This document shows, piece after piece, positions 2,002 to 64,000 of a stretch of 64,000 bases of DNA (the stretch's first letter is position 1; each line of letters begins with the position of its first letter). Origin of the DNA: Spironucleus salmonicida (lineage: Eukaryota). Position numbers and translations under genes: made by a program. The DNA lies in assembly GCF_000497125.1 (NCBI RefSeq), contig NC_090599.1, positions 496,001 through 560,000 on the forward strand. Direction: 5' to 3'. The notes beneath the pieces were generated by a model. It had not been told where the DNA came from. It did no database searches and worked only from the letters and a program-made list of their open reading frames with translations.

Positions 2002-3972
2002 ATGACCTTTGACAATAAAGATATCTAAGCTGTCAATGAAATCCGTGTATTATGTGCTGATATAGTTCAGGGACCTAATTCTGGACACCCAGGTGCGCCT
2101 ATTGGTATGGCCCCAATGGCCTATGTCTTGTTCAAGAATCACCTTCGTTTAACACCCAAGGATCCATTCTGCCCAGCGCGTGATAGATTCGTTTTATCAA
2201 ACGGACATGCTTCCGCTTTATTATACTCGATGCTCCATTTATCTGGCTTTGACTATTCTATGAATGACTTAAAAGCTTTCAGAACTTTGCATTCTAAGAC
2301 CCCAGGTCACCCCGAAAGATGCGAATTTCACACTGGTAAATTATCTCCTGGTATTGAACTTACCACTGGACCTCTTGGTTAAGGTATTTCTTCCGCTGTT
2401 GGTTTAGCTATCAGCATGGAATCCATGAACGAATATGACAAGGATAAGGTAGTCGTTGATGACGACTCTAGAGTTTACGTATTCTGTGGCGATGGATGCC
2501 TCTAAGAAGGTGTTGCTTCTGAAGCATGCTCCCTTGCCGGAACCAAGAAATTACGCAGATTAATTGTTTTATATGATGATAATGGTATTACCATTGACGG
2601 TAAGACTGAAATCTCCTTTGCTGAAAATGTTTAAGGTCGCTTTGAAGCTTACGGTTGGAACGTTTTAACTGTTTCTCAGGGTAACACTGATCTTGATGCT
2701 ATTAACAAGGCTATCATTGAAGCTAAGAAATCTGATAAGCCTACTCTCATTAAAGTAAAGACAATTATCGGATATGGTGCTCCCAAATAAGACACTCATT
2801 CTGTCCACGGCTCCCCATTAGGCGCTGAAGGCTTAGTTACTTTAAAGGCTTTCTACAACTTGCCAACTGACAAGTCTTACAATATTTCCGAATAGACTAG
2901 AGCCATTTTCGCATCGATCATCAAGCGGTATGACACTTTTGTAGACACTTACAATACCCGCTTAAACGCTTGCTCTTACAAAAACGAAATCGTTGAAAGA
3001 TTCGATTTCGTTAAAAACATTACACCAGAAAAACTCTTAGCTGCAATTCAGCCAAAACTTGCTGAATTTGCCGCCAGCGGAGTCGGAAAATCGACTAGAC
3101 AGACTTCTCAGCTCTCAATTTAACTTCTTTCGGACACAATCCTCAAAAAGTACCTCATTATAGGCTCAGCCGATCTCGCACCATCTTGCCTGACTACCAT
3201 CAGCAACATCCCTAAATCCCAATACATCTTTTTCGGTGTTCGTGAATTTGCGATGGTTGCGATTTCCAACGGAATTGCTTCTTATGGCGCTTTCATCCCC
3301 TTCGACGCGACGTTTTTGGCCTTTTTCAACTACTGCTCTGGAGGAATCCGTTTGGGTGCAATTTCTCGCCTCTAGGCCATCCACATCTTCACGCACGACT
3401 CGATCCAATTGGGCGAAGACGGCGGCACTCACCAGCCCGTCGAAACCGTCGCGCAAATCCGCGCACTTCCAGGTACCTACGACTGGAGACCTGCTGACGC
3501 AACTGAGACGCTCGGCGCATACTGCGGTGCCGCCGGAAGGCACGCACAGCACGTCTTCGCGCTCAGCAGAAGTGGTGTAGGCCAATTCAAGTCTGACGCT
3601 GAAAAAACATCCAAATTCGGCGCTTACGTCGCCGTTGAGGGCTAAAATGCGAAGGTTACGGTTCTGAGCAGTGGTAGCGAGGTCGCAATTGCCGTCAAAG
3701 TCGCTGAAAAGATGGGTAACGTTAGAGTGGTTTCTATGCCTAGTTACAGCTTGTTTATGGAGCAATCTGAGGAGTATATTAAGCAGGTAATGCAGTGTGC
3801 CAGAGAGAAATGTATCAGTTTCGAGCCTTACGTCAAATTCGGTTTAGAGGGACTTTGTGGGAAGCACGTATCAATTGAGACCTATGGTTTGAGTGCGAAT
3901 GCTGCTGATTTGGCTAAACATTTTGGTATCACCGCCGAAAATTTAGAGGAATAAATTAAGAAAATGATGTGA
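2002..3972 (+). CDS. tkt: transketolase, 656 aa
   Basis: Motifs [33 protein letters not shown] (Q=TAA), GDGCLQEG (TPP binding, Q=TAA), [27 protein letters not shown]; single frame under code 6. Confidence 0.97.
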
Positions 3973-4078
3973 TACATTTGTTTATAAAATATGTATTTAT
4001 GACGGAGAAAAATTCTACGAGAACGAATTATTATATATATATATAAACTAGTATATAATAGTTCGTTTGGGTCAACTA

Positions 4079-4531
4079 ATGAATTATGTAAAAAATGACC
4101 CTGACGTGATTCGTTGGCGGAAGCTCATAGATTAGCCAGATTGGTTACCAGAAATACCAACAACTGTGATTCCACTAAAACCTATTCAGTCGAAGCCTCC
4201 TTCCTCCTTCAGGAGGAATGCAAGAAAATCACCGTACTCCTAACATGCATAGCAAGGATCTGCACAAAAATATGATATTATATCATTTAATTATATACCA
4301 GAAACATTACTAGAAGGGTAGAAAATCAGTATCAGAAGTAACTAGAGAAAAATAAATTAAGTTAGAAATTAATATAACAGTTATACCCAGGCACGAGTAA
4401 ATATTAGGGTATAGTCACAGACATAAATTATAATGGCTAAAGAAATAGGAGTTTACACCCGGGAAGTAAAAGTGCAGAACAAGATTAAAAAAATTTATGA
4501 TGAGGTTGAAGAACTGATGGGGTATAATTGA
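4079..4531 (+). CDS. hypothetical protein, 150 aa
   Basis: ATG-TGA frame under code 6 (MNYVKNDPDVIRWRKL...) between short AT-rich spacers. Confidence 0.6.
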
Positions 4532-8454: not shown

Positions 8455-8468
8455 ATTTATTTCACAAA

Positions 8469-9608
8469 ATGCTCAACGGACGTTATGAACCAACTTTTGA
8501 CGATAAAAAGATGATATAACTAGCTAACAAACAGGTTATGCGAGAAGCTCGTAGGGATAGAATTTTAGATACAGGTACTAGAAATGCACTAGATAAGGAT
8601 TTTTTGGAATAGTAAATGAAAACTGCTGATCTTACTAAAGCGTATAACAGAATTAAGCAACTCGAAGAAGATGAAAAGCTTTTAATGATCAATAAATATT
8701 TAGCTGAGTAGGAAAGAGAATTTTTACGTTTAAAGTTTTTAAAAGAACGTCAAGATTTACAATTTTCATTAGATAATATGAGAAGAGACTAATCACGTGA
8801 CTGGGATCTTAATGATCCTCAAAGACTTAGAAAGTAAGCTTTCACTCGTGTAGATTAACAACTTGAGGATGGAACCATAAATATTGATCCGAAGCTAGGT
8901 GTTTCATCTGGTTAAGTTTTCCATGGTGAAGATCTTTATTAATAATAGAGAATGCGCGCCTAAGCAGAACAGTTTAGATATGAGATGGAGACAGAAAACG
9001 CTAGAAAGGCCGCTTAGGCTGCTGAAGATGCTAGAAATAAAATGGACGACGATTTAAAGGAAATAGCTGTCGTTAATTATGTAGCAGACTCTGAAAAAGC
9101 ATAAGCATAACAAAGAAGAGATATGGCTATCGCATAAAGACAAGAGAATGAAAGGTTAGCCAAATAAGCTGAAGAAGAGCGTTTAAATTCAATAAAACAA
9201 AACGATTTAGAAGCATAACAAGCCGCTTCAAATTTCTAAAATACTCGTATGATGAGAGAATTCGCTAGACCTGGCATTGTGGACGAATTTAAAGGTTTCG
9301 AAAGAGCTCAAGTGGAATAATTTAACTGCGATTTGGAACAGTAAGTTAAAGATGCATAGTTAAAAAGAAGGAAAGACATGGAAGAGAAAGTTATGCAGGA
9401 AGAGTTAGAGTTAAACGTCAACAGAAAGAGGGCTTTGATGGAGTAAGAATTTACTAGAGATAGAGCCAACATGGCGTATTAACTAGCTTATGAGAACAAG
9501 TTAATGGCGGAGCAGCAGAACACCAAGAAGTTCAACGACACCTATGATTTAGGTAAAAATAAGATAGGCGAAGACTTTTACAAGGGTTTCTAAAAGAGTG
9601 AAAGATGA
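8469..9608 (+). CDS. RIB43A: RIB43A-like flagellar microtubule inner protein, 379 aa
   Basis: Signature RDWDLNDPQRLRK and LGVSSGQVFHGEDL, coiled-coil body, C-terminal EDFYKGFQKSER. Confidence 0.88.
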
Positions 9609-9678
9609 GAGTTTCTACTTTATATGCATTTCTCGCCTCTAAACCACTGAAAATTCAAAAATACCATACCGTTATTTC

Positions 9679-11562
9679 TCACTCAATCCGTTCCACAGTC
9701 AGCTGTTAAATCCTAGTTACCTGATCAACAAAGTCGACCAGCCTGAACTCTTTCAGAAATCCCTCGAACATGCCTGCCAGAACCTGGACGAATACATTAT
9801 GCTGCCCGTCAAAAGGCTGTTTTTCAACTTCTTTTTCTTCTCCTTTTTTAAGCAAAAACTGCAGATTTTCAGACTTGAGGAATGCAACGCCCTCCCCGGA
9901 GTTGCGGACGACGATGTTTTCGCCCCTCGGCTCGCATGTCAGGTCCAGGAGGCCGAAAATACCGAAGAGCGGAACTGTCTGGGCATAGCCCTCGCCTTTG
10001 ATCATTAAGAGCCCGGAAACGAGCGGTTTTAGATCACCTCGCGGGGCAAACTCCACAGTGAGGTCCTGGAACTGTCCCCCCGTGATGGAAATTTACTACT
10101 TGTCCAGTTTGAAGTTTTAACAGTCTTATTATACGCTCTCATGTGCCACAGCGACCGTATCCTGTAGCGAAATAGTCAGATTCAGTGTTTCTTGCGTTGG
10201 GTTTTTGATTCGAACTTTGGCAATTTCGCTGTATAGCTGGTTAGCAGGTGGAAAGAAAAGTTGATTTGGAATTGTAATCAATTGGGCAGTTTCCTGAAGG
10301 TCGCTTTTCGAGGGTACTTGTGTTAAGAGGTACTGCGAGCCGATCGATGGGGTGGAATGGGGTGGTGATGGAGGTGCTTTGGATGGTTCTAATGCCTTTT
10401 AAAGTATTTCTGGAGCCGGTGCTGGGGCCGGTTCAGATGCTTCTACAGTTTGCTGTTGGAGTACTTCTTCCACTGTAGGCTGTTAAATTTGTTAGAATTC
10501 CTCTTCTTCAATGATATCAGAGAGGTTCTCCTGTGGTTCAGAGTCGATAAAAGATTTTTCAAAAGGAACGCAGTCATCCATTTCGTCTAAGTACAAAGGG
10601 GAAATAAATTGCTTAGGAATCGAAGCTTCGGTAAACGTAACCTATTTTTAGTCAGAAATGATCTCGGGCACTTCAAAAGTTGGGACCCAGGTGTCAACTT
10701 AGGGGTGGTCTTATTCTACTGCATCGGATATCTACTATTAAGAAGCAGATATAGACTGACCTCCTACCTAGCTAAAGTTCAAAATACTCATTTTTGCTTC
10801 TTAGATTATACTTTCTGGTATGTCTAACCCCGAATCATAACAGTATTTTGAGTGGTGCTTTTTCCCTGCTGATACTACTGAGGGAGCGTATACTTCTCCC
10901 GGCGGGAAAGAGCTAACAGTAGATCCGCTTGAGAGCTTTGAGTTGAATACCGCGGATTGTGGGAGGTATGTGTTGTTATTGGATTCATTAATGAATGCGT
11001 CTTGAAAGAAAACTGTGTGATTAATGACAGGTGACTGATATGCTTGAACTGGTAATACTTAGGATGCATACTAAGACTAATATAACTAGCTATTATTAAT
11101 AGATTATGATTAGTTCATGCTTTATTATTGACTTAAGGATGAGATATTAAAATCTTTTTAAGTTTCAAAATATAATATAACATACACTATAGACACACCC
11201 CCTAAGCAGATTTCAAGTTAACACATACCAGAACCTATAGCCCCAGATTATACATGTATTTTCGAAACCCATACTTATTCAGTGATATGCTCTAACAAAG
11301 GAGAACAAGAAACTGTAACACCCTCTGATGTTGTTTTTAAAACGTACTAGTGACCATTGGTTGCTAAAAAACTGACTGCTATATCTTTTGGCTAGCCAAC
11401 TGTTAGTTATATTTACTGTTAAGATTTAAATGTTGTTTTAGGAAAACCATTATCTTCATATAAGGCTATACAGTTATCGTAGTTTGGAATAGGTTATATT
11501 GATGCAATCTACGAAGCTTATGAAAATCTTGAAAATGTGAGATTTGATGTTGATAAGTTCAT
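9679..11562 (-). CDS. Ig-like/ASH (SPD-2/CEP192-like) domain protein, 627 aa; paralogue of 13414..15009
   Basis: Open code-6 frame checked base by base; C-terminal beta-sandwich-like region VRIKNPTQ...VEFAP...VPLFG...VVRNSGEGVAF; ends GAG-TGA. Confidence 0.75.
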
Positions 11563-13254: not shown

Positions 13255-13413
13255 GTTTTGTTTATTTATTACCACAAGATCTATTAATAATATCTACATT
13301 AGCTAACCATTTCGTCGAACTGTAACTTTTCATTTTTTCAAAATTTTTCCATTTTAAAATACTAAAACTATTATTATATTATAATATCTACTTAGTAAGA
13401 TTTGCGCTTCAAA

Positions 13414-15009
13414 ATGTATAATTCGATGAGCGCCTCGCAGTTTATGAGAGCGTCCCAAATACAAGCCATAGAACCTGTAATTAACGGAATCCAAGGCCCA
13501 GCGCTCGTACAGGACCACTCTTTCCCACTTCTGACGTACAAAACCGCCCAGCCAATTACGCTATCCAGCACGTAGCAGTCAGAAATCGTCGTAAAGCTTC
13601 TGGCCCAAAATCCGGGTCCCGTAGCGCTTCAGACGAGCAATTCGAACGTTATCGCCTCCTGCGACCCCTACCTGAGCCAAATCGCTCAGGAGGTCTTCCA
13701 GTGCACCGTGCGCGCCACGGGCGTCATCGCCGGCGTCGGAAGCTGCCAGATTCAGCTCGTCATGAACGGAAAAACGAGCTGTTATATCATACTCAATTTC
13801 GCGACTGAGACCCCTTCGGGGCAGTTCGGGGGGTCTCACTTTTCGCAGAATCAGTCGATTTTGCCCGTTTCGACCTCAATCGCAAACGGCTTTTTCGGAA
13901 GTACTAACCAGCCAAATTCGCCGATGAAAGCGAGCTATTTCGCGCCATCTACGCCGGTTTAGCAGGGTGTGTAGCAGGGTGTGTAGCGCCACCACAGCCC
14001 GTACTGCTACGGCGCCGAGATTCCGGACGGGGTCGTTGAGGGGGTCAGGAGGTCGAATTTGGAGTTCTCGCAGTCGGGTCTGGGCGCTAGCCAGGGAAAA
14101 ATGGGGGGCAGCCAGGTCCGCGTGCAGCCTGAAATTCAGATTTCGCAGCAGCCGCAGGTCGCAAATACGCCGAAAATCGCTAAAAAAGAAGAAATGCAGC
14201 TAGAACGGACCGCTGGGGCTCAGAAAAGCGGTTCAGACAAGTCGGTTGAGGAGGAGATGCAGCAGGTGCGCGGGGAGGTCTAGCAGTCGTAAAAAGAGCA
14301 GTCTGATGAGGTGAAAAAATCTAAGCTGTCTGCATCGGAATTGAACAGCAGCAAAGGGCAGAGGGAGTCTAAAATAAGGGTTATTCCGTCGTGTTTGCTG
14401 CTGCCTCCTGCCTCCACGTAGCTCTCGTCTATCGCTATGGTGCGTGTTAAAAACTGTTAATCTGAGCCGATTGAGCTCAAGTTTAAGGCGGTTCCAAGGT
14501 CGTTTTCGACATCTACATCCAATGCTTAATTTCCGCAACTGAAGGCGGGCTCTGATTCCTTTTCGGTGACGCCTGAGTTCTGTACTTTAGAAAAGAATCA
14601 GCATATCGATTTAAAAGTAGAATTTAAGCCAGAGTCAATTTAGTACATTTTGGAGGGTTGCAAGATACTAATTACGGACAGCACAAAAGCGTGGTAGATT
14701 CCGGTACTAGCGTTGGCTGGTTTACCTGATATTTCGGCTCACTCAGATAGCAAAAAGTAGGAAATTCGGTTAAGAAATGACGGTGACGGTGTTGCTGTTG
14801 TATAAGCTAATGGTGAAAGTGTAATTATTTAGCCTGGGGCGAGTGCAGTCGTGGATTATTAGACAAGTTTTAAGGTATTCCACGATGGCTTGAGAATGAT
14901 TTTAGACTCCGAATGGTCTGATATGATTGGGGTAATGGGTATGAAAGGCATAGAAAATTAGGTAGAGAGGTTGGTAGAATTGACGTGTTCTGTTGTTGAA
15001 GTTGAGTGA
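13414..15009 (+). CDS. Ig-like/ASH (SPD-2/CEP192-like) domain protein, 531 aa; paralogue of 9679..11562
   Basis: Joins ORF-track 13708..13962 and 14059..14283 through TAG; C-terminal VRVKNCQ...VEFKP...IPVLA...LRNDGDGVAV; ends GAG-TGA. Confidence 0.8.
13960..13987 (+). repeat. 12-bp in-frame tandem duplication TAGCAGGGTGTG x2.3 (QQGV repeat)
   Basis: tagcagggtgtg tagcagggtgtg tagc read directly. Confidence 0.85.
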
Positions 15010-17331: not shown

Positions 17332-18546
17332 ATGTCAGAAATTTCCCAAACCGTCGAAAAAATCCATTTCCTGCTTAAATTTGCAACTGGTGAGAAGCTA
17401 AACCAACTACAGAAGCTTCTTCAGACAATATCAAAATATCAACCTCCATTAACAGATTCACAGCTTAGAACATACCAGAAAATCGTAAAATTCACCAAAC
17501 AGACCGAAATTGACTTATAACATCTCATTACAGACGCAAAATAAGTAAATTTAGAAGATTTAGCGGTCGAGAAAAGCGAGGAAATCTTCAAAAAGTCATT
17601 CGAACGAATAGAGCCAGCTCCGCCTCCGCCACAGCTAGCTTAAGCTATTTAGCCATAAAACCATAAATTTGAAGCAGAAATTCAAAATTAAATTCAAATT
17701 CTAACCACGCAAATTCAGCACCAAACTGCGCAAATTACGTCGCTAACGATTGATTTGCAAAATGCGCAGACGACAATTTTGGCCCAAAACGACGAAATCC
17801 GCACGCTGAACGACGACAATTCCTCTCTAGCCGATCAAGTTTACTCACTCAAAAATGCACTTTAAACGCAGAATTTGCACATCGCGGGACTCGAAAAACA
17901 GGCCAAAAGCGACGAGAAAACGCGCAATTTTCAGACCCAAATCGACTCGATTTGCGGCGATTTGGCGACCGATTTTCACGATTTGAAGCAGGTTTGCCAG
18001 AACCTGAAGGACGCGCAGCCCGCCGTTCTGGGCGAAATCTCGCAGAAAGTGCTCGAAATGGAGCAGCAATTTGTGCTCGAAAACGCGCAAACTAGGCAGC
18101 AAAATCGCGCGATTCTGGCCATCGAGGAGCAAATTCGGCAGTACGAGGGCCTTCTGGGCAGCCAGAAACCGCCCGGAAGCGGGATTTTGAAGAACTCGCA
18201 GGTGAAAAATACGGACGTTCTGATGAGCGAAGTTTTGCGGATTTGCGGCGCGTTCAAGAGCCAAAAAGTCGTCCTGCAGCGTGCCAGCCTGGACGAGTTC
18301 GTCCTAGAGCGCACTGGCGTGATTTTGAGGCTTGAAATGTCGGAAAAGGGCACGCTGTGCGTTGTCAGCGAGGGCGGAAACGCCGTAAAGGCCGTCAGCC
18401 TGAGCCAGTACCTGAAGGGGGTCGTGCAGGGCGTTGGGAGCCCAGGAATCGGGCTCCGGGGGTCCGTGCGCACGCCGAGTTTGGGGCAGAGGACGCCCGA
18501 GAGGAGGCCGCAGAGCGTGCGGGTTGGCGTTTCGATGCGAAAGTGA
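17332..18546 (+). CDS. coiled-coil protein with possible C-terminal GAR/Gas2-like domain, 404 aa
   Basis: Joins ORF-track 17332..17520 and 17875..18546; weak similarity of LCVVSEGG...SLSQYL to GAR VMVRVGGGW.TL.EYL. Confidence 0.8.
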
Positions 18547-18554
18547 CGTTTTTG

Positions 18555-19103
18555 TCAATTTGGGTGCTTTTTGAACCAGGCCAGGACGAGATTTTTGGCG
18601 ATAACAGATTTCGTGCTCTGGACTGCTTGAGGCAGCGGGAGGCTTGTGAATGTCTTAATGTCTATGTGGCTTTGCTGGCATTCGTTTCTTAGCTTCTTTC
18701 GGGTCGAGTAGAAAATATCCTGAAAATCCTTCATTGGAGGCTACGAGTAGATGTTGAGGTCAAATTCTGAGAACTTCTTGTCTAAGTATTTTTTGTATAT
18801 AAGCCCGAAATCTTGATTTTGCTGAGTGCAAATTTATGCCACAGCACCTAGCTGACAGTTATCAAATTTCAGGCTTTAAATAGACTAAAACAGTGAATAA
18901 TATCTACCTGCTTTGTTGAGCATCTATTTTTTAATCTCTGTAATAAATAAAAACTGTGCGTATTGTAAATCTTTATCAGCTTGACTTTCTAAGACAGAAG
19001 ATTATCCTGATTCTAACAAGTCAATAAACTCATATATCTTGGTAAATTTTTCATTATATAGCTTCATTTATATGTGTTTTCTATTGCTTAGCAGCATGTT
19101 CAT
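18555..19103 (-). CDS. hypothetical protein, 182 aa
   Basis: ATG-TGA code-6 frame filling the gap between flanking genes. Confidence 0.7.
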
Positions 19104-19157
19104 TTACTTCATACTATATTATTTTATATAATAATCCATGGTTTTTCACTTCACATA

Positions 19158-21584: not shown

Positions 21585-24500
21585 ATGGAGAACAACCCAC
21601 CATAATTATAGTAAAGTATTGGTTCACATTCTGATGATGCACCAGCTAAAAACCAGATTATTACAGAAGATAACTTCAAATTGATAGTTAAAGAATCATT
21701 ATTGCCAGATGTTAATTAGCTGTCATCTTATATGAAAACGTCTATTTTAGAAGGATTATCATAACAGTAAGTCGTTACAAACTAAAAATGGGGTTAAAAT
21801 AAAATACCAGATCGGCCACCTGAACCATTCTGGAAAATTTTTCTCGGAACGTTTAAGGATCCAACCTTGATCATATTGATAATTGCTGCGATTGTATCAA
21901 TTATTATCGGATCAGCTATTCCAGCACAGAGAAAGCATGGTGGCTACATTGATGGAATTGCTATTTTGGTAGCCGTCGCAGTAGTTTCTCTCGTTGGATC
22001 AGTAAATGACTATCAAAAAGAAAGATAATTTAGAAAGTTGAATGCAGTTAAGGAAGCCAGAGACATTACTGTTCTTCGAGAGGGGAAACTCATTTCACTA
22101 TCAGTATATAGTCTCGTTGTGGGAGATATTTACGTCTTCGAAATGGGCGACTAGCTTGCAGCAGACGGTATTTTAGTCTCGCACCAGCTGCTTAAAATGG
22201 ACCAGTCTCAAATCACTGGTGAATCAATGGCAATATCGAAAAATGCACAAAAACCATGGCTTGTAGGAGGTGCGCTTGTATCCGAGGGATCAGGCAAAAT
22301 GATCGTCACCGCGGTCGGCATTGACACGATCAACGGCGAGGCGATGTTGGCTCTATAAGACGATAATGATCTTGAAACCCCACTGCAGACGAAGCTCAAT
22401 GCACTGGTAAAAATAGTCGGTTACATAGGCCTCATTTCGGCTGTTCTGACGTTTATCGTGCTCATAGCTAAATTTTTTATAGCGAACTTGCACCAGGACA
22501 CCCAAAACTACGCTATCTGGGTCAATTATCTCATCCTGGCAATAACAATCGTAGTCGTCGCGATTCCGGAAGGCCTGCCGCTCGCTGTTACTATATCCCT
22601 GGCATTTTCTATGAAGAAAATGCTCAAAGACCAGTGTCTAGTGCGCAAATTGCAATCCTGCGAGACTTGTGGCTCGATTTCGATAATTTGTTCAGATAAA
22701 ACCGGCACGTTGACGATGAATCAGATGCGTGTCGTTAGAATCTTCACTCCTAACACATCAAACGACTAAATCAAGCAGATAATGTCAGCGAAAAAGGGAG
22801 TTCCTGCGGACATCTATTCCGCACTATGCCAGTTCAACACGTCCTTCAATAAGGTGAGGCTGAACGGTGACACCGTTCTGGGCTCAAAAACTGGCGGCGC
22901 ATTCATGCTAATGTCCAGAGATGTCTACGGCTGCGATTACGAGCAGTTCGTAGCGGGTCTCGTCTATAACAATGATCCAGAAGGCGCTGTAGTACACCAG
23001 ATCGACTTCACGTCTGACCGAAAGCGCAGCACAATGCTTATTGATTTGGCCAAATTCTCGCCTCCCGGCAGCGTGAAAGAGCAAATTCAGCAAATTTAGT
23101 CTAGCGGGCAGTATATTTCGGTCTGCCGCGGTGCCTCGGAGATCATTTTGAACCGCTGCGTTTCGTACATTGATCCAGATTCAGGTGCCATTTTACCGCT
23201 CACGGAGGAACTTAAAAACATCATGCTAGCGAAGATCTAAGAGTATGCGAAGCAGTCGTATCGGACTCTCATAATGGGTTACAAGTAGATGGAGAACATT
23301 ACGAGCGATTTAGACGAATTGGAGTAGGATATGGAGTCTGAGCTGATTTTCCAGCTTTTGGTCGGAATTCAGGATCCGTTGCGCCCTGGAGTTCCAGAGG
23401 CGATAAATCAGCTCAAAATGGGAGGTATTAAGACGGTTATGGTCACAGGTGATAATTATATTACTGCAATCTCTATCGCAAAAGAGGCAAATATCATCGA
23501 TTAGCACGTTGAGGACGACCGTATTTCTAATTTTGCAGTTACTGGTGAACAGGTTCGCAAGATGTCGGACGAAGAATTGGATTCGATTTTGCCAACTTTG
23601 GCTGTCGTTGCTCGCTGCCAGCCAAAGGACAAATATCGCGTAGTTTAGAGGTTTTAGATCGCAGGTCACGTTGTTGCAGCTACTGGGGACGGTAGTAATG
23701 ATGCTCCCCAACTGAAGGAGGCGGACGTCGGTTTGGCGATGGGAATTGCCGGTACCGAAGTCGCCAAAGAGGCTTCAGATATTGTCATCATGGACGACAA
23801 TTTTTGCTCAATTTTGCATGCCGTTGAGTGGGGAAGGACAGTTTTGGCGAGTGTGCGTAAATTTATATAGTTTTAGCTTACTGTTAACGTGGTCGCTCTG
23901 GTGATTGCTTTTTTGGGGGCGGCGTTTCTTTCTGAGTCTCCCTTGACTGCGATTCAGCTGCTCTATGTTAATCTTATTATGGACTCATTGGGATCTTTGG
24001 CGTTGGCCACTGAAGGGCCTACACCAAATATTCTTTAAGCGCCTCCTGTTAAGCGTTCCGCATCGATTATTACACCTGGAATGCTTAGAAATATCATCAT
24101 TTAGTCGGTTTATTAACTTCTGGTGTTGCTTATAATGTTATTTGAATTTCCTGGAAATCTTATTTGCTTTACACCTACACAAGTAACTGGTGAGAAAGCT
24201 ATTTAGTACAGGTACACATCAATTTATAACTTCTTCATTTTTGCTTAAATATTCAACGAATTTAATTCCCGACGATTGAATAACGAATTAAACGTATTTG
24301 ATGGGTTGTTTAAGAACATTCTTTTTATTATTATCATTGTTGTTACGGTTGCTTTGCAGATACTTATTATGTTTACCCCTGGTCTTAGAGATATTTTTAA
24401 TGTTTATTCTTGCAAGTAAGGCGCTACTAATTGTGGAGGTTTAATCTAATATGGAATAAGATGGGAGACTTGGCTTATAAATTTAGGACTCGCTGCAGCC

Positions 24501-39288: not shown

Positions 39289-39294
39289 GGATTA

Positions 39295-41912: not shown

Positions 41913-41992
41913 CTATATTTGAATACATATTTGCCGCCTAAACTGCACTTCAATTTCAATGTCTCTATCGAAAATTCACTCCAAATTCGAAA

Positions 41993-42925
41993 ATGGACGA
42001 TCTGACTCAGGACTTGTACGCCGAAAACCTGAAACTCAAGAACATCATCGAGGAACAGAACTTGCAAATGAAAGACCTAGACGCCCTACAGCTTATCTCC
42101 TCGGGTTTAGAGCGGCAGAACGACTTCCTGCGCTAGTAAATTCCGCTTCAAAACGCCGAGGAAATCATGAAATCGGAAGCTTAGTTACAGCTCATGAAGA
42201 ACTAGTTCGCGGCGCTGCAGCAAACGCACGCTACGCTGGACACGAAGTTCTCGCAAATCTCGAAATCGGACCAGATTTCGGCCCAGGCGCTCAAGAAGGA
42301 GAACGAGGGCCTCAAGAGCCAAATTCAGCAGATCCAAAGCTTCCTCCAGAACAACGAAAACTACACCGGAAACCTCGTGCAGAAGTACTCCGCAATCGCG
42401 CAGAAAACGAAGCTGACGGAGCAGTTCGTGCTAGCTAACGCGCAGCAAGCACCAAGCTACGACAACTGCTTGCGCGACTTCAGAGAGCATTTCAAGTTCT
42501 TCAAGCAGATTTTTGCGGTGTTTCCGGTGCTCAGCGACGTGCAGAGCCAGTTCAAAATCGCGCAGCTCCAGACGCTGGCGAGCCCCGACTTCCTGGCGAA
42601 ATTCGGCGTCCCGTTCGAGATTGCGGTCAGCGCAGCCTCGTTCCAGCCCGAAATCCAGAACCACTTCGCTAGCAACTGGAACGACATCTTCGAGTCTCAT
42701 CTTCTTGAGTTCGTCCGCGAAAAATTCTAGGAAATTGGTGCTTTGCGAGGGGCGAATCGTCCGGTCGATAAGCGCCTTTTCGAACTCGACGAGCGAGAGT
42801 TCGACTCCGGCTTCGTGTGCAATTTCCTCGCGGTCTGCCTCGTGCTGCAAGGCTTCGAGCTGGCCCTAGACGGCGCTGGGGTGTGCTTCCGGCGCGGCTC
42901 AGGCGTGTGGTATTTGGACGTTTGA
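41993..42925 (+). CDS. coiled-coil hypothetical protein, 310 aa
   Basis: Joins ORF-track 42377..42730 and 42743..42925 in one frame; AGTGA shortly after the stop. Confidence 0.8.
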
Positions 42926-42947
42926 GGCGGGTTAGTGAAGGTTTTGC

Positions 42948-45905
42948 TCAGTTTCCGCCCAGCGCGTCGCCCAGCGAAAGCTGGTTCTTCTGCGGCGTGC
43001 CCGATGCCGCCGAGAGCTTCATTTGCGGTGTTTTCGCCTTCGGCTCCAGCGCTACTTTCTTCGGTGCGTGCCCCAGGCTGCTCAGGAACTTCCTGTTGCC
43101 CTGCGGGTCCGCAGGCGGCAGATTCTCGTAGTTCTAGGGCGAAATTCTACCCATCTGCGACGCATCTGGCGCGAATTGCACGTTCTGGGGCGTGCTAGGC
43201 ACCGCAGAGGCCTTGCGGTTGTAAGCGCCGCTTTTGGCGTCCTTTTCGACCCGCTTAATGAGCTCGTCCACCTCGAAGCGCACGTCCTTCACGACCTCCT
43301 GGAACTTCTGCTTCGCGCCGCCGCTGGCGAACGAGAAGCCCAAAACGTCCAATTTCCGGCCCGTAATACCACCGCCGCTGGGCCGCGCACCGGGAAGAAT
43401 ATCGCCGTCGCGGGCGAAGTTTTCGGTCTCCTGGAAGCGCCCCTCGATGATGTCCAGGCACAGCTTCGCGGCCTCCGAGGAGCCGCTGGATAGGCAGACC
43501 GCGCGGAAGCCTTCCAGCCCTCGCCGCGTCCTGAAGAGGTTGCAAAGTGCCTGTACGCGCGACGCCAACTTGGCCTTGCAGAGCAGCTGCCCCAGCCCCA
43601 AGAGCTACAGGTCGAACTCCATGTCGCACCTGTTGAGCTGGCTCTCCTGGAACTGGAAAACGTATCGCGAGCGCAGCAGAGCGAATTCGATGAAGATTTT
43701 GCGCTCCAACGCGTCAATTTCGTCTTGGTTGGAGTTGATGGGTGGCGACGGGGCCAGTGCGACCATGGTGGGCGTCTGTAGCAACGGCACAGAGGGCTCG
43801 TAAATGACAGGAAAATGCTGCTTGAGATATCGCAAATCCTGGTCAAATTTAGCCGCAAAATCGACCTTCTAGGCCTTCTGGTTGTCTGCGATTTTCATCA
43901 GCGCGTTGAACGAGCCCAGCAGAACGCTGTCGTCCTGCTCGATTTTGATGGCCTGAATTTGGAAGGACTGGCCCACCTGCTCTATATAAACTGGGTGGAA
44001 ATACGTGCTTCGCAACTCGTTTAGGTCGCCACGCGTCAGGGCGTCTTTCACCTGGCCGTTGATAATCTTGAGCAGGCGGTCCTGCATCCTCTGAATTCGA
44101 GCATATTCAGCCTCTAAATAGCTGTGCACCATAGTCACAGATACGCTATTTTGGCCAAAAAGATCCTGAAAATCGACAATGTACAGCCCTTAGACGTCGC
44201 CCAAAACGACGAAATCTTCAGTGCAGGAAAGGAAGTTTATCGTGTTCAAGCCAAGCTGGCACTGATACACAGCGGTGAGGCTGAACGGATCAAACGCGTG
44301 GAATCGCTTGCCGTCTTCGATGAAAAATATCATCTGAGAGTTCGCGGTCAGGTGCGTAATTCGGCCGTACGTCTACGCGCTTAGGCACATTCCTCCGCTC
44401 AGGATGTGCAAATAAGAGCAATTTCTCCCCTCAAGAGTGATGCACGTTGTGCTTAGGTCGACCAGCGCAACGAGGTCTGGTGACTAGTAGGATGGAAGAA
44501 CACCTTTATAAAGAGGCTACGCATCAGCGTAGCTATGCATTTGGAATGCGTGTTCTGTTAAAATCGCAAAACCCTCTGCAGCAAGAAATGCGGAAACTAC
44601 AATATTTGGGAACTAAAAGCTTCGTGGCTGATAGTTCACATCTGCTGGTATAACAGAAAGTTGAAAACTATGTCCTTAGTTTTGACCAGATATCTGTCCA
44701 AATTAGTTTAATTAAAATATTGTCCTGGACGAAGATTTGATTGCTTTCGACCGTTGTGCTAGAGAGCTGAAGTATGTTTATGTATCGCCAGGTTGGATAG
44801 CATAAAACTAAGAATTGCATGTTGTTAATACAGATTAAACTTTAGATGACACAATAATATCCGACTATAAAGAATCATTAGATTAATTAGAACACATTGA
44901 GGCATCTTAAATATCATCAACAAATAGCTTTTCTGATTTTTATTTTTAAGCCGATTGTTAAGATTTAAAATCATCAGAATCATCTAAATAATCTAATTTT
45001 TCTTCTGTTTTATTGATAGTAAGAATAATTTCTTACTTTGGAGATTTAGGGGTTTATATTTTTGATTCAGAAAATTTTTGTTTTTAATGTTAAATTTCCT
45101 CTGGAATTGATTTTACTATATCCAAAGAAATTTGATAGAATTCTGCATACTTAAATCCATCATCTAAATCTTCATACACGCAATAAATAAGACAATGTTC
45201 ACCTTTATCTACAGCATATGCATCTATTAAATTTTTATGTTCTAGTGCTAATTTGCCAATTATTTTTATATCGCTATTAATTAATTAACAAACCTCTATT
45301 AGTTAATTTGTAACTCCGATAAATTTATTGCTTGTAAATGCTCTTGTAAATTAATAATTTAATTAAGTAACAATCTATTTAATATCAGTTACCTATCTAA
45401 TACCACATGGAGTAACTAAGTATGGTGATAAAAACCCACACATCGGAGGTAAAATACTCCAAGGCAACTGACCTCTTGTTTTAGAAGCAAATTTCGTCTG
45501 CTGTATTACTTTATTATTTTCCATTAGTACTATTTCTCCATTGATAGAAACAACAAGTAGCAAATTACCTTATGATAAAATGCTAAATACAACATCCGAT
45601 AGTTTATGAATAATAGAGTCATTAAAAAAAATTTATCCATCTGATGTTCCTGCATATCCAGGAGCATATGATGTTATCAATGATTCAACCTCTAAAATTG
45701 TCTCTTAATTCTTAATTACCTTTTTATCTGTGACCATATAATCGTTATCAAAATATATGATATTTTCTACAGACTCTTATACGTCATTAATAATTTATTT
45801 TTTGATAAGTTAACTTATTTTATTATCACCAACACTAAATATACCATTTTATAAAGAGCACATATGAAAATCCGTATTATCACCTAAAAGTAAACGCTTT
45901 GTCAT
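42948..45905 (-). CDS. Ctf4/And-1 (WDHD1)-like replisome hub, 985 aa
   Basis: N-terminal WD40-like region, acidic linker, SepB-like AIQPGDT...RTIFQLNQFGQI, helical C-terminal bundle (LERKIF...DLQLL...LCKAKLASRVQALC); joins three ORF-track fragments. Confidence 0.72.
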
Positions 45906-49477: not shown

Positions 49478-49634
49478 TAAATAAGAATCATAAATCTTAT
49501 AATTAAGATATAATAAAGTTATTACCTACTTTCCTAATAAGTATACAATTTATTTTATTATATATTTCACAAAATTTTCACTCTATAAAATTATATAAAA
49601 TACTTATAATCATATATTATTCGTATTATAAAGT

Positions 49635-50933
49635 TCACTTTGATTTCTTTCCCACGGACTCAACGAACTCTCCAAAACTGGCCCTATAGCTCGAAATCGG
49701 CTGAATTTTCTTCGCAATGCAGAAAACAGCATCCTCGCAGTACTTCTTGTAAATCATCGTATTCGTCCCATTTTTCACAATTTCGTTCCACTCCCGAACG
49801 ATGAATTCGCTGCATTTTTCGTTCGAGCTGTCCACCAAAAGCACCATCATCTGGCTCTGGATATCGTCGTATTTCACGCCGATACCGTCGCTTTTCTGGA
49901 GCGAAATAACCGCGATTTCGATCGCCGAAAGCGCGATTTCGTAGTGCCGGAACGCCAAAAACCGCGGGTTCAGGAGCGTTATTTCGGCAAGAAATGTCGC
50001 CAGGAGGCACGTCTGCTGGCCGATTCCGAGGTCCCGGAAGAGTGACCGCTGGTACGAGCGCGCGTTCAGCGACGAGATGCCCAGGCGCCAGTCTATGGCG
50101 TCCAGGAGCTTTAGCTCACCGATTAGCATGTCCTGCACCGTGAACAAATCCGAGAAGTACGTGCAGAGCGCAGAGGTGCCCAGGGCCTCCCCGTAGTTCT
50201 CCTCGTGCTTGGTGGCCAGAAACACGCAAAGCGCCGACAGGAGCTTGATTTCCTGCTTCCGGAGCTGCAGATGCGACAGTACGCGGTGGTAGAGCGTGCA
50301 GGCAAAAAATTGGGTCTCTAGCGAGTAACACTCCTTGAACGTGACTTACGTGATGTAGTCGATGCCTTTCTGGACGTCTCTGGGCTGAATTTGGTCCTAT
50401 TGGGGGATTTTAGGAAGCTGCTCTTGCGGGGGCTGATTTGGGATCTTCCTGCTCGAATTAGCGCGCTAGAAGCTCGATGCAGAGCGGTTTTAGGTGCGTG
50501 CGGCTTAGAAATTCAGAAAAACCGGGTGCTTAAACTTATTTTGAATCTGAACCTCATTTATATAGTTGGGGTTGCCATATTCTTGCAATTTTGAGTAGTG
50601 GAGATCTTGCATGACCATCTCTTTCATGATTACTTCAGAATAGCTAGCTATGATCGTTGCGTTGTTAGAAGTCTAGTCCATATGTTATGCTGGTGCAAAT
50701 TTTGTCATAGATGCTCCAATCAGGCATGGTTTGTTCTGCTTTCGTTATGGGGTGATCAGTGACTCTGCTATTTTTTGATATTAGCTAAAATGGGCATTTT
50801 TTGGAGTCTTAGGATTTGCCATTTAACTGTTTATTATAGTCGTCTAGTTTACTAAAGATCCTGTCATTCCGGCGAATATTTGAGTGTTAACTGGCTGCAG
50901 AAGATCATGAACGTTTAAAATTGAATTATTCAT
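49635..50933 (-). CDS. cyclin (A/B-type cyclin box), 432 aa
   Basis: IDYITQV...LETQFFACTLYHRVL...LCVFLATKHEE...ELKLLDAIDWRL, second cyclin fold FLAEITLL; ends AAG-TGA. Confidence 0.9.
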
Positions 50934-51817: not shown

Positions 51818-53020
51818 ATGGATTTGAAAGAAACTTTCATTACCAATCTTGTTACTTATGCAAAAATAGACACTGGAGGTGACTCATCATCAAATACGGT
51901 ACCAACTACGTAATGCTAATTTGATTTGGCATATTTTCTTCGTGACTAGCTGATATCATTAGGTCTTAAGCCTGAAATTGATGAACACTGTTTCTTATAT
52001 TGTCTTATGAATGAGGGGAGTCAAAAGAGAATTTGTTTAAATGCCCATTTAGATACCGCTGAAGATGCACCCAATAAAAATGTAAAACCTCGCATTCATT
52101 AATATGAAGGAAAGGATATATCTTTGGAAAATAACATTACATTATTAGCAACTGATCTTGAAACATAGAACGTTTAAAAAGGTGATACCATAGTATCATC
52201 CGATGGTACTACTTTGTTAGGTGGAGATGACAAGGCTGGAATCTCAATCATTATGACTCTGATCTAGTATTTACTTGAAGATAAAACCAGACTTGCAGGA
52301 CTCCCAGAGATTATGGTTTGCTTCTCCCCTGATGAAGAAAATGGTAAAGGGGGTCCTTACTTCAACTTATAAAAGCTACGTAAAAATGACTAAACAATTG
52401 CCCTTACAATTGATGGTTCAAATCATCATAAAATTTGTCTTAAATCCATTGGTGCTCGTAACTTCAACGTTGAAGTCACTGGTTATAGTACTCACCCAGG
52501 ATATGCTTACCACAAGCTTATTAATGCAGCAACTGCCGCCTCTGACATAATATCTGAGCTTAAAAAATAGTTAAAATCTGCCGAAGAGTCAAAAGACGAA
52601 GAAGGCTATCTTTTAGTAAGAAATATTAAAGCAGATATCAGCTAAGCTTCATTTAACGGTTTTATAAGAGGATACACAGATGAGTAACTTGACTACTTCA
52701 GCAATGGACTTAGACGTATCTGCAAAGAACACAAAGGTGCAGCTAAAGTAACTGTGGAAATTGTGAAGGCGTATGAAAATCTTGAAAAGTACATTCCAGA
52801 GGACTTCAAAAACAAGCTCAGAAAGCATGGAGAGAAATATAACTGTAAATACAACCCAGCAAGAGGTGGAACAGATGGCGCTAAATTGAGCGTTTTAGGC
52901 CTCCCAACTCCAGATCTCTGGTATGGAGGCCATGCTTATCATAGCGTGCGTGAAGTCGTAAATGTATCCGAAAGCATCGATTGCATCAAGTTTTTAATTG
53001 ATTTTATTGGCGATTTGTGA
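51818..53020 (+). CDS. pepT: peptidase T (M20B tripeptide aminopeptidase), 400 aa
   Basis: YAKIDT, AHLDTA, DGTTLLGGDDKAGI, PDEENG, IDG, HPGYA, RGGTDGAKLS, GLPTPDL, HSVRE. Confidence 0.95.
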
Positions 53021-53026
53021 CCGTTA

Positions 53027-55045
53027 TCATTTCATTTTTTCAAGTTTGTGACGGACGATTTCCTCAAACTCATTGGGCCCGAGAGCGTTCTGCAGGACAG
53101 AAATACTACGCCAATCCGTGAGTATTTTTCGCACTATTCGTGTTGCTTTATTACGTTTTTTGGCATATTTTAGTAGTAAGTGAAAGATAGTTTCTATGAT
53201 CTTACGAAGATATTTCTAATACTAATAATTAGCTATTTTAACGTATTTAGCATTCAATTTAATCGCTTTGAAGGCTTTCAGCAGAAGTAAATTTTACTTA
53301 AAGAGGAATACAAACTTGAATTATTACTGGATAGAAATTAGATGTACGAATGAAAGTTTTTATAATCTTAGAAAATTATGGGAAATAGCCAACTTTTAGG
53401 AAGAAAGAGCCATGAATTGTAATTTTAAGAGGGTTTTATAGGTTTTATTGAGGAGCTGCTAAGTTTTCTGGGTAATTGCTTTCATTTATAGAAATTATAA
53501 ATGGGTGGAATATGTTTAAACTGCTTTAAAATATGGCTGGATGAATATTGTTTCGATTGATTATCGGACTAACTTTAAGCTGTAGATTTTATGAATTAAA
53601 GCTGAAAATGATGTTTTTGCAGTGTAAAACTAGTGTATTTCTTGTGCTTAAAGGTTCTATTTTTAAAGCTTATAAAACCTCAACTTAAATATTAAGTATG
53701 TGTTGGATAAAAATTTTGCGTTACTCAGGCGTATCGCAAATATAAAAAGTTATAAATTGTTTACAAGCTACTATTATAAAAAGCTAAAAAGATACTTCTA
53801 CTACCGTTATTTATTGTTTAACTAAAGGCTATCAAAAATTATTGATTTCCCCAATTAAGTTACAGTTTATACTTTATTTAAGAGTTAAAAAAGGACAGAT
53901 CTTTGTAGCAACAAATTTGATGTGACTTTAATTAAAATTTCAGCATTTTGAAGTTTATGAAAATAATTTTTAAGATAGTGAAACAGTGACTTAGCAAGCC
54001 GTTAATTTATTTTATCTATAATTTAATACTCTGTCTGCTAATTATTATTATAACGATCTATAAATATATAAAATGATTTTTTCAATATTTTATTAAAATA
54101 ATTTTAGTTCTAAGCGTTCAACATTCGCCAATTTACTAATCCATAACGTTTAATATTTCCATAAATTAATTTTTATATAATAACTTCCTTATAGAAATGT
54201 CTGAGTTACTTATAACAAAAACCGATTTTTTTCTATTACATCTGCACCTAAAAGATATAAGCAGTATACTATTGTTGTTTTATTGTATTAAAATTTGTAA
54301 TAAATTTATAAAATGTAGATTTCATTAATTCATAACCAATATTCCTACGTATAATTCCTAGGCATTAAAATTTTATCATCAGTTTCAAATAATATGATTA
54401 AATCTATTTCATTTTTGTTATTTTTAGCTAATATTCTTACATTTACAGTAATTAAAATTTGGTTTTAATTTGAATAAATAATTTTTAAATTAATAGTTTT
54501 TATTTCTAAATAATAAATCGTTATTTTCTATGGATAACTACAATTTAAAGAAAGTAAGACCTTTTAGATTAAATAATATTATTTTATAATAAAACTTTCC
54601 CTTTTAACTCAACAAAGGCGTATTTTTTATATTTCCTTTCATAAAAATACCGAATAATTGGCTATAAACTCTTGATATAAGTATAATAATTCTTAATAAC
54701 GTAAAAAATCTGTATAAGTAAAATCCTTTTACCATTACATTTAATTTTACTAATAATAGTTGCGTAGTTTCTCCATTCATAGAACGAACGTGCCAAGATC
54801 AGAGGATGAAGGGGATTTATCTAAGTTTATTGAAAAATTTAACTTGTACTTTTTTTCAGCAGGTAATTAATCTTTTAAGGAGAAAACTAAACTGATAAGT
54901 TCACATCTGGGGCTGAACCTATTGAAAAAGATAGCAATGAATCAGTTAAAGGAATTTTATTTTCAGGTTGTGGTGCTTATTAGCGAGAGGTATTTAATTT
55001 AGCTAGAAAGGAATCAACATCAAAATTAGAATCTAACAATTCCAT
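53027..55045 (-). CDS. basic helical-repeat protein, Sfi1-like (tentative), 672 aa
   Basis: Open frame checked base by base; recurring basic F/L..W repeats (RSFYEWRNY, GLVNWRM, ILTDWRS). Confidence 0.7.
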
Positions 55046-62738: not shown

Positions 62739-62958
62739 TATATTAAAATTGGAGAGGGAAAATGGAACGATTTATATCATCATATTATTATATAGTTATA
62801 AATACATAATTAAATGTATAAAACTAATGTAATTTAAATATAATAGAAAATCTTAAACATAGTGAATATAAAACAATTATAATATCATTATTAATTATAT
62901 ATTATAAAATACAAAAATAATATTATATAATTATATAAACTTATTTTTCCGCATTAGA

Positions 62959-64000
62959 ATGCATTAAGAACTTATATCTGTACTGAACGAATCATTTGAC
63001 AATATCATCTAATAAGGGTTTTCCCAAATTAAGGACTATTTTAACCAACGCTAACTCCATGTCATGTTCGAAACTTCATTGAACTGCAACCCTAAAACCG
63101 ACCATTTAATGCCAAAAAATGTTTTTCCTATTTTCAAAGACCTACTTGAGTAGACATTCAAATAGACGTAAATACGGCTGATCCAGAGCGCATCTGATTC
63201 GATTAGAGAAATTGTCACACTGGATCAGGTTCTCCTCCCACCCCTTCCAGACAATGAGTTTTTGCTGACATTGTTGACCCAGAGCAAGAGGGCGCACCAG
63301 GATGCAATCAAGCAGTTCAGCGACGAAAAGGGAAAGCTGCTCGTCCAAGTATCGGACCTCAAACAGCAAATCTACTCGATGTGGAAGTCAGGAATGTGCT
63401 ATGCGCCGGATTTCATGGAAGACTTTTTCCAGAAAAGCGATAAGGACGACAAGCTGCAGCTCAAGGTCAAGAACCTCCTCAGCCAGCAGCACACGAAGGA
63501 GAAGAGCAGAATGGCCAAGCTCAGGAAGCACGTTATTTAGCAGGAGCAGGAGTTCGTGGGAAACATTTCTGATTTGGGCGTTTTGGAGATTATCTAGGTA
63601 CAGGCGAGCCTTAATGAGTCGAACAAAGTGCTTGATGACGCCGAGCAGTAAGTGGACACTTTCAATGTCAATTTTGTCAAAGATTTCAAAGATTTAGAGA
63701 GCAAGGAGTAGAAGTTACAGCGAGAAATAGCATAAATTTAAGCTAGAGCTAGAGATCTGCAGATTGATTTAACGTAGTCGCAATAGCTGATTGCATTCCT
63801 TAAGAGCAAGGTGCCTAGTGAGGATTGGGATAATCTAATCAGAGAGCAAAAGGATCTTATTGATAATGCTGATAAGCAGAGAAAGGCGTTAGATAGTTTG
63901 TATAGTCAAGATAGTAAGTTATCATTTGAATTATAAGATATATACTTTAAAAAGAAAGACATGATTAACTAGGATTTTGCAGAATAAAAAAACAACCTGC
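62959..64000 (+). CDS. coiled-coil protein (3' truncated by window edge)
   Basis: Code-6 frame open from ATG 62959 through ORF-track 63262..63540 to the window end. Confidence 0.8.

Follow-up and report, generated by a model that had tools for sequence, protein, structure and literature searches.

The window analysed here is a stretch of 64,000 nucleotides from Spironucleus salmonicida, a protist that parasitises fish and has an AT-rich genome (NC_090599.1, positions 496,001 to 560,000), whose genes are read with TAA and TAG as glutamine (table 6), the code of hexamitid diplomonads; the standard code, under which just 6 open reading frames of at least 100 amino acids are found, was rejected. 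No tRNA genes were found in the window. GC-rich islands recur along it, and nine of the eleven centres put forward in the original prediction were recovered as peaks called from GC alone. The first (2800..3950, edges approximate; peak 3458; GC skew −0.20 on the left and +0.24 on the right) covers the 3′ half of a transketolase gene (2002-3972, plus strand), within which the third-position skew also flips. The second (9400..10900; peak 10056; −0.01, +0.26) lies at the 3′ end of a minus-strand gene (9679-11562) convergent with a RIB43A gene (8469-9608, plus), and the third (13300..14900; peak 13969; −0.17, +0.16) in the 5′ part of a plus-strand gene (13414-15009). These two island genes are paralogues with islands at opposite ends, GC3 falling from 0.61-0.70 to 0.39 in one and rising from 0.22 to 0.58 in the other.

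Further along, an island at 17500..18800 (peak 18305; −0.07, +0.19) sits on the convergent junction of genes 17332-18546 (plus) and 18555-19139 (minus), and a broad one at 21900..24100 (peak 22974; −0.04, +0.16) occupies the middle of a P-type Ca-ATPase gene (21585-24743, plus), where third-position skew flips from −0.26 to +0.95. The island at 24800..25700 (peak 25185; −0.17, +0.33) falls at the 3′ end of a TBC gene (25114-26223, minus), and that at 38300..39300 (peak 38826; −0.17, +0.26) spans the plus-strand gene 38452-39288, beside which a contig of run X5 has a loose poly(A) end at 39300. A composite island (41700..44600; peak 43283) overlies the convergent genes 41993-42925 (plus) and 42948-45905 (minus), the latter earlier labelled Ctf4-like and matched by no Pfam family; it lacks a net flip at the peak (+0.01 and 0.00), and is probably two or three centres merged. 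The last called island (49500..50800; peak 50145; −0.17, +0.19) covers the 3′ half of a cyclin gene (49635-50933, minus). Two predicted centres went uncalled: the weak rise near 53.0 kb (52600..53200; GC 0.36), at the convergent junction of a peptidase M20 gene (51818-53020, plus) and gene 53027-55045 (minus), is under the peak threshold, and the rise near 63.4 kb (63000..63900; GC 0.43), over a predicted plus-strand gene from 63109, lies at the window edge.

As predicted, islands in the window begin and end mid-gene. They are single-copy with intact reading frames, and the two stretches that hold most of them have no close second copy; repeats or mobile DNA were rejected as their cause, the repeats shown here being short, AT-rich and at the level of chance. 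Contigs from all four runs, two of them from a second study, agree with the island DNA between 36 and 56 kb at every base they match, so that it is not an assembly chimera; over these 20 kb no substitutions are listed, a statement that concerns contigs and not reads.

The compositional contrast far exceeds chance. GC3 in blocks of 100 codons has a standard deviation of 0.19 (141 window blocks), whereas none of 1000 shuffles exceeded 0.058, and the highest block reaches 0.87, against a shuffled maximum of 0.55. GC3s declines from 0.75 at island centres to 0.28 by 1.7-2.2 kb, a local excess of GC at neutral sites on the scale of conversion tracts. Fourfold-site GC rises from 0.17 to 0.75-0.9, a shift of 2.7-4 logit units, and codon positions 1 and 2 are also GC-higher in 25 of 26 genes. 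The arginine pair AGR/CGR, which differs by a transversion, shifts by +1.7, against +2.6 to +3.1 for transition pairs, and amino-acid changes may contribute to this figure. In the ATPase island, comparison with 13 homologues revealed no shift towards GC-rich amino acids (19 up, 47 down). The islands had also been described as CpG-rich, which holds for 8 of the 11 centres (CpG observed/expected 1.13-1.30, background 0.74) and fails at 10.0, 53.0 and 63.4 kb (0.87, 1.0 and 0.75). Sequence context does not support CpG-specific repair, since TpA-to-CpA is raised as much as TpG-to-CpG; an effect of a 5′ G is marginal (+0.23, interval 0.03-0.45) and seen in one of two contrasts. Nor are these vertebrate-type CpG islands, which escape methylation at promoters: gene starts are avoided, and a search of the genome with PF00145 (cytosine methyltransferase) returned no match, which does not prove absence.

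The islands carry a strand asymmetry that is anchored at their centres and genome-wide. In all five pairs of flanks quoted as clearest, GC skew is negative on the left (−0.24 to −0.41) and positive on the right (+0.25 to +0.62), whereas the accompanying claim of an A-rich left and T-rich right fared less well (left A-rich in 4 of 5 pairs, right T-rich in just 3 of 5). When islands were picked by GC alone, all 8 in the window showed the C-left/G-right flip, as did 40 of the 48 examined elsewhere in the genome. At synonymous sites the asymmetry is 0.48 logit (32 single-copy islands), and it follows the side of the centre and not the strand of the gene (0.47 for plus-strand genes, 0.51 for minus-strand genes), as had been proposed; something therefore acts outward from the centre. 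It measures 0.44 at fourfold sites. With distance, asymmetry is +0.03 at 0-150 bp, strongest at 300-800 bp (+0.24 to +0.34) and gone beyond about 1.7 kb (−0.08 to +0.03 in four bins), fading together with the GC excess. The signal sits in isolated single-copy islands: it is 0.09 (interval −0.05 to 0.23) in 30 merged islands and −0.05, without a flip, at seven GC peaks within repeats, and a first fourfold profile, for which all 95 peaks outside the window were pooled, gave a weak and noisy signal. Asymmetry in the window is above average (0.67 inside, 0.40 outside). Intergenic sites near centres were too few for a skew estimate, and no consistent 5-8-mer motif was found among 77 single-copy cores.

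The suggestion that the islands are independent of genes was overstated: although the synonymous flip is centre-anchored, gene starts, gene orientation and skew at codon positions 1-2 all matter. All 56 island centres lie at least 273 bp from any start codon, genes point toward the centre in 37 islands and otherwise in 17 (p=0.009), and GC3 is lowest beside divergent gene pairs, at 0.32, compared with 0.43 beside convergent ones. At the scale of chromosomes, islands are concentrated mid-chromosome in two of three well-sampled chromosomes, the gradient not being significant on C2 (p=0.56), and the low-GC DNA of left and right arms has no long-range skew (−0.002 and +0.014). High GC is frequent among near-identical repeats (arm GC 0.42-0.68 in L003, L015, L029, L064, L066, L068 and L074), and five pairs lack it (L007, L020, L021, L030 and L044; 0.29-0.39); duplicated regions have been reported at 44.7% GC versus 30.7% (PMC9509377). 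Paralogous repeats diverge as a patchwork, with 0.4-1.2% adjoining 5-16% in neighbouring 250-bp bins. Since duplicate copies are equal in GC, their substitution spectra were uninformative, save for one paralogue pair that shows both transitions and transversions.

A GC mosaic in this species was published in 2007 without an explanation, and was called very difficult to explain (PMC1805757; PMC2874811). The accessible text of those papers describes, as here, sharp GC shifts unrelated to the presence of genes that involve third positions and non-coding DNA; it proposes regional mutation bias, not conversion. The word 'skew' is absent from the available texts, and the asymmetry about island centres, with its reach of 1-2 kb, and the lean towards 3′ ends are features of the present analysis and not of theirs in that portion. 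We found no description of the centre-anchored flip in print. A mid-chromosome GC maximum in a compact parasite genome recalls the bell-shaped GC curve of Encephalitozoon cuniculi chromosome cores, as the accessible part of that paper presents it (PMC4704409), although here the gradient is made of kilobase islands (GC3 0.51 versus 0.28) and is not seen on C2.

The reading we favour, tentatively and at somewhat under even probability, is that islands are stable sites of break repair with strong GC-biased gene conversion. DNA breaks or nicks would recur at each site, made by Spo11 or formed while cells grow mitotically, for instance where 3′ ends converge, and would be repaired by homologous recombination off another chromosome copy, with heteroduplex extending about 0.5-1.5 kb on either side; mismatch resolution strongly favouring G/C could then carry fourfold-site GC from 0.17 to 0.75-0.9. 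The mirror-image skew would follow from the opposite strand polarity of the two sides of the break together with one repair step that treats the bases unequally, A-to-G being favoured over T-to-C on the strand leading away from the centre. The range of the asymmetry and its fading with the GC excess count for conversion, because human meiotic break hotspots are similar, with 1-2 kb resection, a symmetric centre, strand-asymmetric flanks and GC-biased conversion of transitions and transversions, in the accessible parts of the sources (PMC7615360, PMC11922761). So do the lack of leading/lagging-type skew in low-GC arm DNA, the large GC shift, which includes arginine AGR/CGR and codon positions 1 and 2, and the GC-rich near-identical repeats with patchwork paralogue divergence. 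In a profile search of the genome, a TP6A_N (Spo11) domain and one Rad51/Dmc1-family gene scored over the cut-off; Msh2, an Msh6-like protein and Mlh1 are listed for the species, Msh4/5 and Mbd4 are not, and end-joining is reported absent from parasitic diplomonads (PMC8516963). High-GC3 regions are weaker in S. barkhanus and hence evolutionarily labile, to go by the available text (PMC2874811).

Human hotspots differ from the islands in their PRDM9 motif, the islands having none, and in their rapid turnover, and their asymmetry is ascribed to single-stranded DNA damage (PMC7615360, PMC11922761), which by our reasoning would give the opposite sign. Several observations count against conversion. 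Simple deamination on resected 3′ overhangs should give a G-rich top strand on the left, the reverse of the skew found, so that conversion needs an extra strand-unequal step and origins need none; we found no report of inverted skew at DMC1 hotspots in the literature. Recombination hotspots of yeast and birds are located at promoters, and the low GC3 at divergent-pair flanks makes the context here different. The five repeat pairs that are not GC-rich, the flip-less repeat peaks and the unshifted amino acids of the ATPase island weigh in the same direction, as does the lack of any observed sexual or parasexual process among metamonads (PMC8516963).

A possible but less probable explanation is that islands are fixed replication origins, where mutagenesis tied to initiation or breaks tied to origins would raise local GC and the flip would come from leading/lagging asymmetry. 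The sign of the skew favours this view: C on the left and G on the right, with A-to-G on the outward strand, is found at yeast Mcm-loading sites and human origin S-jumps, and a mutagenesis model for human origins yields both a local GC rise and skews, according to the accessible sections (PMC10945306; bioRxiv 10.1101/2021.12.16.472898). The negative-to-positive flip itself, the two Orc1/Cdc6 genes listed for S. salmonicida and the mid-chromosome crowding, which could be an early-replicating domain, are compatible with origins, and the outward strands are richer in G2-quadruplex-like runs (202 versus 119), an excess that skew by itself partly predicts. Yeast Mcm sites likewise number thousands in a small genome, but as the available text describes them they are intergenic, nucleosome-free and ACS-flanked, with a subtle skew visible in averages only (PMC10945306), unlike our intragenic, GC-rich islands with flips visible singly. 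Human CpG islands share the GC and CpG richness, the sign on each side and a GC drive inside; however, in the accessible part of the source they lie at promoters and their asymmetry, about 9%, is constant over hundreds of kilobases (PMC2817419), whereas the islands here are intra-coding, in a genome whose search for a cytosine methyltransferase gave no match, and their asymmetry, about 0.5 logit, is over by 1.7 kb. Fork asymmetry should reach termini, and here it is lost at that distance and absent in the arms. If mutation were the cause, the AT/GC mutation ratio would have to change by a factor of about 10 to 50, genes facing the centres would be head-on to outgoing forks, and the GC-rich homogenised repeats would be left without explanation; the missing centre motif is a weak point, since many eukaryotic origins have none. 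In short, the range, the magnitude of the GC shift and the homogenised repeats with their high GC point towards conversion, and the sign of the skew towards origins.

It is doubtful that the flip is merely gene-polar skew within GC-rich genes, with coding strands C-rich at the 5′ end and G-rich at the 3′ end and centres that start nothing. Of 187 complete genes, 145 indeed have a greater all-position GC skew in their 3′ half, whatever the GC class, and because such polarity at codon positions 1-2 alone yields the raw C-left/G-right picture on genes of either strand, the earlier argument that equal polarity on plus- and minus-strand genes excludes codon or transcription bias was insufficient by itself. 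In GC-rich DNA a position-in-gene term also persists for third positions (z=4.3), minus-strand genes are weak in a paired within-gene test (7 of 14), and weak GC peaks flip too, as expected of genes between AT-rich spacers. It is the third-position tests that speak against a gene effect. Low-GC genes are polar at positions 1-2 only, their third positions showing no anchoring to gene ends (32 of 66, mean −0.009; halves 0.26 and 0.22); this differs from unicellular fungi, where gene-polar skew reaches fourfold sites of ordinary genes, in the available text (McLean and Tirosh; PMC3315797), and it adds to the raw flip here at positions 1-2. Skew in 3′ halves is −0.16 before a centre and +0.35 after it (5′ halves −0.25 and +0.09), and in the middle third of genes −0.37 where GC3 rises and +0.43 where it falls. 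Where a peak sits on a convergent junction (seven cases), the 3′ ends shift towards C, with a mean of −0.36 and 7 of 14 negative, compared with +0.24 for the 19 junctions of low GC, and the slope term stands with position in the model (z=−5.5). Gene polarity would also leave the GC rise without a cause.

We consider it unlikely that transcription starts cryptically in both directions from the centres, or that R-loops form there, so that exposed non-template strands gain G over C and T over A on each side. The sign agrees with the A-to-G excess on non-template strands in the accessible part of the human study (PMC2817419). Yet known promoters of this species are AT-rich or have a C-rich motif directly upstream of the start codon, and its transcripts are clearly bordered (PMC3916229); the centres keep away from gene starts, and the GC rise is again unaccounted for. 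G-rich strands favour R-loops, and the outward strands, being G-rich, should be prone to them. There is a similarly small chance that break repair and replication initiation are a single event at some 1,800 fixed sites. Dmc1-dependent recombination, proposed in a model for Carpediemonas to start forks (PMC8516963), would then give the GC excess by conversion and the origin-like skew by outward synthesis. Selection (on codon use in highly expressed genes or for a GC-rich functional element) or foreign DNA is very improbable: RNA-like contigs are deeper over four island genes than over several AT-rich genes, depths that cannot rank genes, but the islands cut through genes, at opposite ends in two paralogues, are single-copy and in-frame in the window, and the available text places the GC3s of highly expressed genes near 0.4 and describes genes of high GC3 as weakly expressed and for the most part not transferred (PMC1805757).

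The proposal of a bidirectional process at island centres stands as to outward action, and the sequence is compatible with both of the causes that it offered, a fixed origin and a break hotspot. The kilobase islands mark a process working outward from fixed points, most likely biased repair of DNA breaks, and the centre, mirror-image strands and 1-2 kb reach of isolated patches restrict the likely causes to the repair of breaks or the initiation of replication; by estimate, the islands supply 1,800 genomic coordinates. GC3 in this genome should not be taken as a sign of expression level or of gene transfer. If conversion is the cause, a two-nucleus protist without observed sex would harbour conversion hotspots within its genes that are stable and unusually strong, with implications for its very low heterozygosity. 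If the islands are origins, a lineage whose ORC is reduced would have origins readable from its sequence, and if repair and initiation are one event, sequence alone would locate diplomonad origins and breaks, as a fossil map.

The window (C4:496001-560000 of this genome, G000) has a layout of 32% GC that is almost without introns. Under the standard code it holds only six open reading frames of at least 100 amino acids, whereas table 6 (TAA/TAG=Gln) gave full-length transketolase, DEAD helicase, Ca-ATPase, cyclin and others (68/97 ORFs scanned). The closest named relatives of the P-type Ca-ATPase (window 21585-24743, plus strand), which carries an island in its middle, are from Hexamita inflata (58%), Trepomonas and Giardia muris, together with an S. 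salmonicida paralogue. Code, relatives and layout taken together indicate Spironucleus salmonicida as the source. Beyond the window we sampled 79 of an intended 160 dispersed 10-kb stretches (C1 22, C2 22, C3 21, C4-C9 14), one of which consisted of N alone and was removed; the sample is thus weighted to three chromosomes. Genes were called with a purpose-built model that reads the third base solely as strong or weak, and is therefore unable to create a skew. It was seeded with 29 window genes, so that recovering Pfam-supported frames there is no independent check; it overlooked at least three curated ORFs, and its calls were sparse in repeat-rich loci. Peaks, defined by smoothed GC only, numbered 104 per 844 kb with a median width of 1.4 kb, which extrapolates to ~1,800 islands genome-wide.

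The GC-rich islands noted by eye in an AT-rich background are real: GC at fourfold sites rises from 0.17 in the background to 0.75-0.91 wherever local GC is at least 0.5. The predicted flip from C-rich on the left to G-rich on the right was likewise borne out, as, among 56 isolated islands, GC skew was greater on the right side in 8/8 within the window and in 40/48 elsewhere (p=3e-6 for the latter), and T-over-A skew in 35/48 of those outside the window; at low-GC control positions (n=225) the right-higher share was 47%. The C excess is centred 90 bp to the left of the peak and the G excess 104 bp to its right (51/56 islands). The raw flip was seen with plus genes flanking both sides (11/13), with minus genes (6/8), between convergent genes (3/3, vs 0/6 controls flipping that way) and where the gene model called none (20/21).

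These raw counts are, however, partly confounded by a gene-polar bias that the original prediction overlooked. Across the whole sample, the coding strand begins C-richer and ends G-richer in 145/187 complete genes, which yields C-left/G-right on the top strand for either gene orientation; a like start-to-end polarity is described for unicellular fungi (PMC3315797). This bias resides in codon positions 1-2 in every GC class and is absent at third positions of low-GC genes. We therefore measured w at synonymous third positions, obtained by subtracting the log-odds of C over T from that of G over A, for genes reading toward versus away from the centre. The asymmetry was 0.48 (0.33-0.61) in 32 isolated single-copy islands, 0.40 in the 24 beyond the window and 0.44 at fourfold sites, against a maximum of 0.37 among 1000 label flips. 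It was 0.34 after trimming 250 bp at gene ends, and was found inside each gene half and within single genes (23/33, p=0.001; plus 16/19, minus 7/14; control genes 39/83). Merged islands (0.09) and peaks inside repeats (-0.05) showed hardly any flip. At synonymous sites the asymmetry was alike on the two gene strands (plus 0.47, minus 0.51), and the gene-polar bias is not enough to account for it there. In GC-rich DNA a residual position-in-gene term (z=4.3) does persist beside the slope term (z=-5.5), so that gene-polar and centre-anchored effects are both at work.

At the island centre there is no asymmetry; it is maximal at 300-800 bp, still positive in the 1.3-1.7 kb bin and lost past ~1.7 kb. 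Along the strand leaving the centre, G gain equals A loss and C gain equals T loss, the G/A change being the stronger; extra A-to-G and extra C-to-T on this strand are indistinguishable from composition. A search for a centre motif found none. Centres lie in gene bodies, with a start codon within 273 bp in 0/56 islands and 34/56 centres in the 3' half of the gene, although smoothed peaks may be displaced inward by AT-rich promoters. Two paralogues (window 13414-15009, plus, and 9679-11562, minus) bear islands at opposite ends, so the protein does not fix island position; the pair is divergent (24% identity, E 3e-35), with a weak Cep192-domain match in one. Pooled GARP content was twofold higher in cores (0.24 vs 0.12); the within-gene shift was modest (0.19 vs 0.16, in 18/26), and the ATPase showed no amino-acid shift to GARP relative to its homologues. 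Of the RNA-like contigs in the stretch examined, the deepest lie over the peptidase M20 family gene at window 51818-53020 (plus), which has only a weak GC rise, although depth of this kind cannot rank genes. Two neighbouring AT-rich genes (window 30086-31705 and 31931-33499, both minus), whose N-termini look alike and which belong to no Pfam family, are by eye probably tandem paralogues.

At the chromosome scale, GC3 of gene-rich stretches was 0.51 in the middle third (n=19) vs 0.28 in the arms (n=39; p=3e-5). On C1 (rho -0.69) and C3 (-0.84), though not on C2 (-0.19), it declines as distance from the middle grows, and island density follows the same course in the C1 and C3 samples (L021-L039, L059-L077), not in C2. 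On C4-C7, the one stretch sampled at 700 kb of each (L014-L017) is GC-rich too, and low-GC arm DNA showed no left/right skew. A subtelomeric tandem repeat (~345 bp, 87-95% identical) is common to L021 and L059, which lie 30 kb into C1 and C3, respectively.

Any cause of this pattern must provide a fixed centre, strands that mirror each other, a range of 1-2 kb and a very large drive toward G/C. Repair of breaks with GC-biased gene conversion, which we tentatively favour at slightly below an even chance, would supply the reach and the drive, with a bias parameter of ~2.7-4 if the fourfold-site GC shift is at equilibrium. Further signs of conversion are that many homogenised repeats are GC-rich and that divergence between paralogous repeats is patchy. 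A tandem array of 1193-bp units (L015:1-10000; C5, 700 kb) is 99.96% identical, with GC 68% and GC3 0.88, and inverted repeats at L003:6313-7204 and 8474-9365 (arms 57% GC, spacer ~22%) and at L029:493-3751 and 5138-8397 are each >99.5% identical. Copies at L047:4070-8945 and L049:1-4907 form a patchwork of 0.4% to 26% divergence across 250-bp bins, as patchy conversion would produce, and include near-identical stretches that are AT-rich. Inverted paralogues at L028:5379-6128 and 8747-9514 have similar GC in one part and 0.47 vs 0.62 in another, by transitions and transversions. Five near-identical AT-rich repeat pairs do not fit, but may simply be young. The weak point of the conversion reading is the skew sign: resected single-strand damage predicts the opposite, and the reading has to invoke either unequal resolution of mismatches or an error-prone fill-in. 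The genome has one polymerase of the Y family and one gene of the uracil-DNA glycosylase family, the sole match to that family found (C4:490482-491009, minus, ~5 kb ahead of the window). Replication origins would give the correct sign directly, but their skew ought to extend past the island and they do not easily produce the GC drive; we rate them less likely than conversion. The proposed bidirectional process is partly supported, in that the synonymous asymmetry is anchored on the centre, while the choice between conversion and origins leans tentatively to the former.

PMC1805757 and PMC2874811 report the Spironucleus GC mosaic without explanation; the chromosome-scale PMC9509377 relates GC to regions that are duplicated and proposes conversion in the case of surface-protein arrays, and the GC track in its Figure 2 may already display the middle-rich pattern. 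The word 'skew' is absent from PMC1805757, PMC2874811 and PMC3916229, and 'GC skew' carries a different sense in PMC7403616. We found no account of the flip in literature on Spironucleus GC skew, origins, recombination or G+C, diplomonad GC-biased gene conversion or Giardia origins, where coverage of subscription journals and theses is thin. The islands are akin to known hotspot- or origin-type footprints, in a new form, and their pattern opens a long-standing question in diplomonad genomics to testing.
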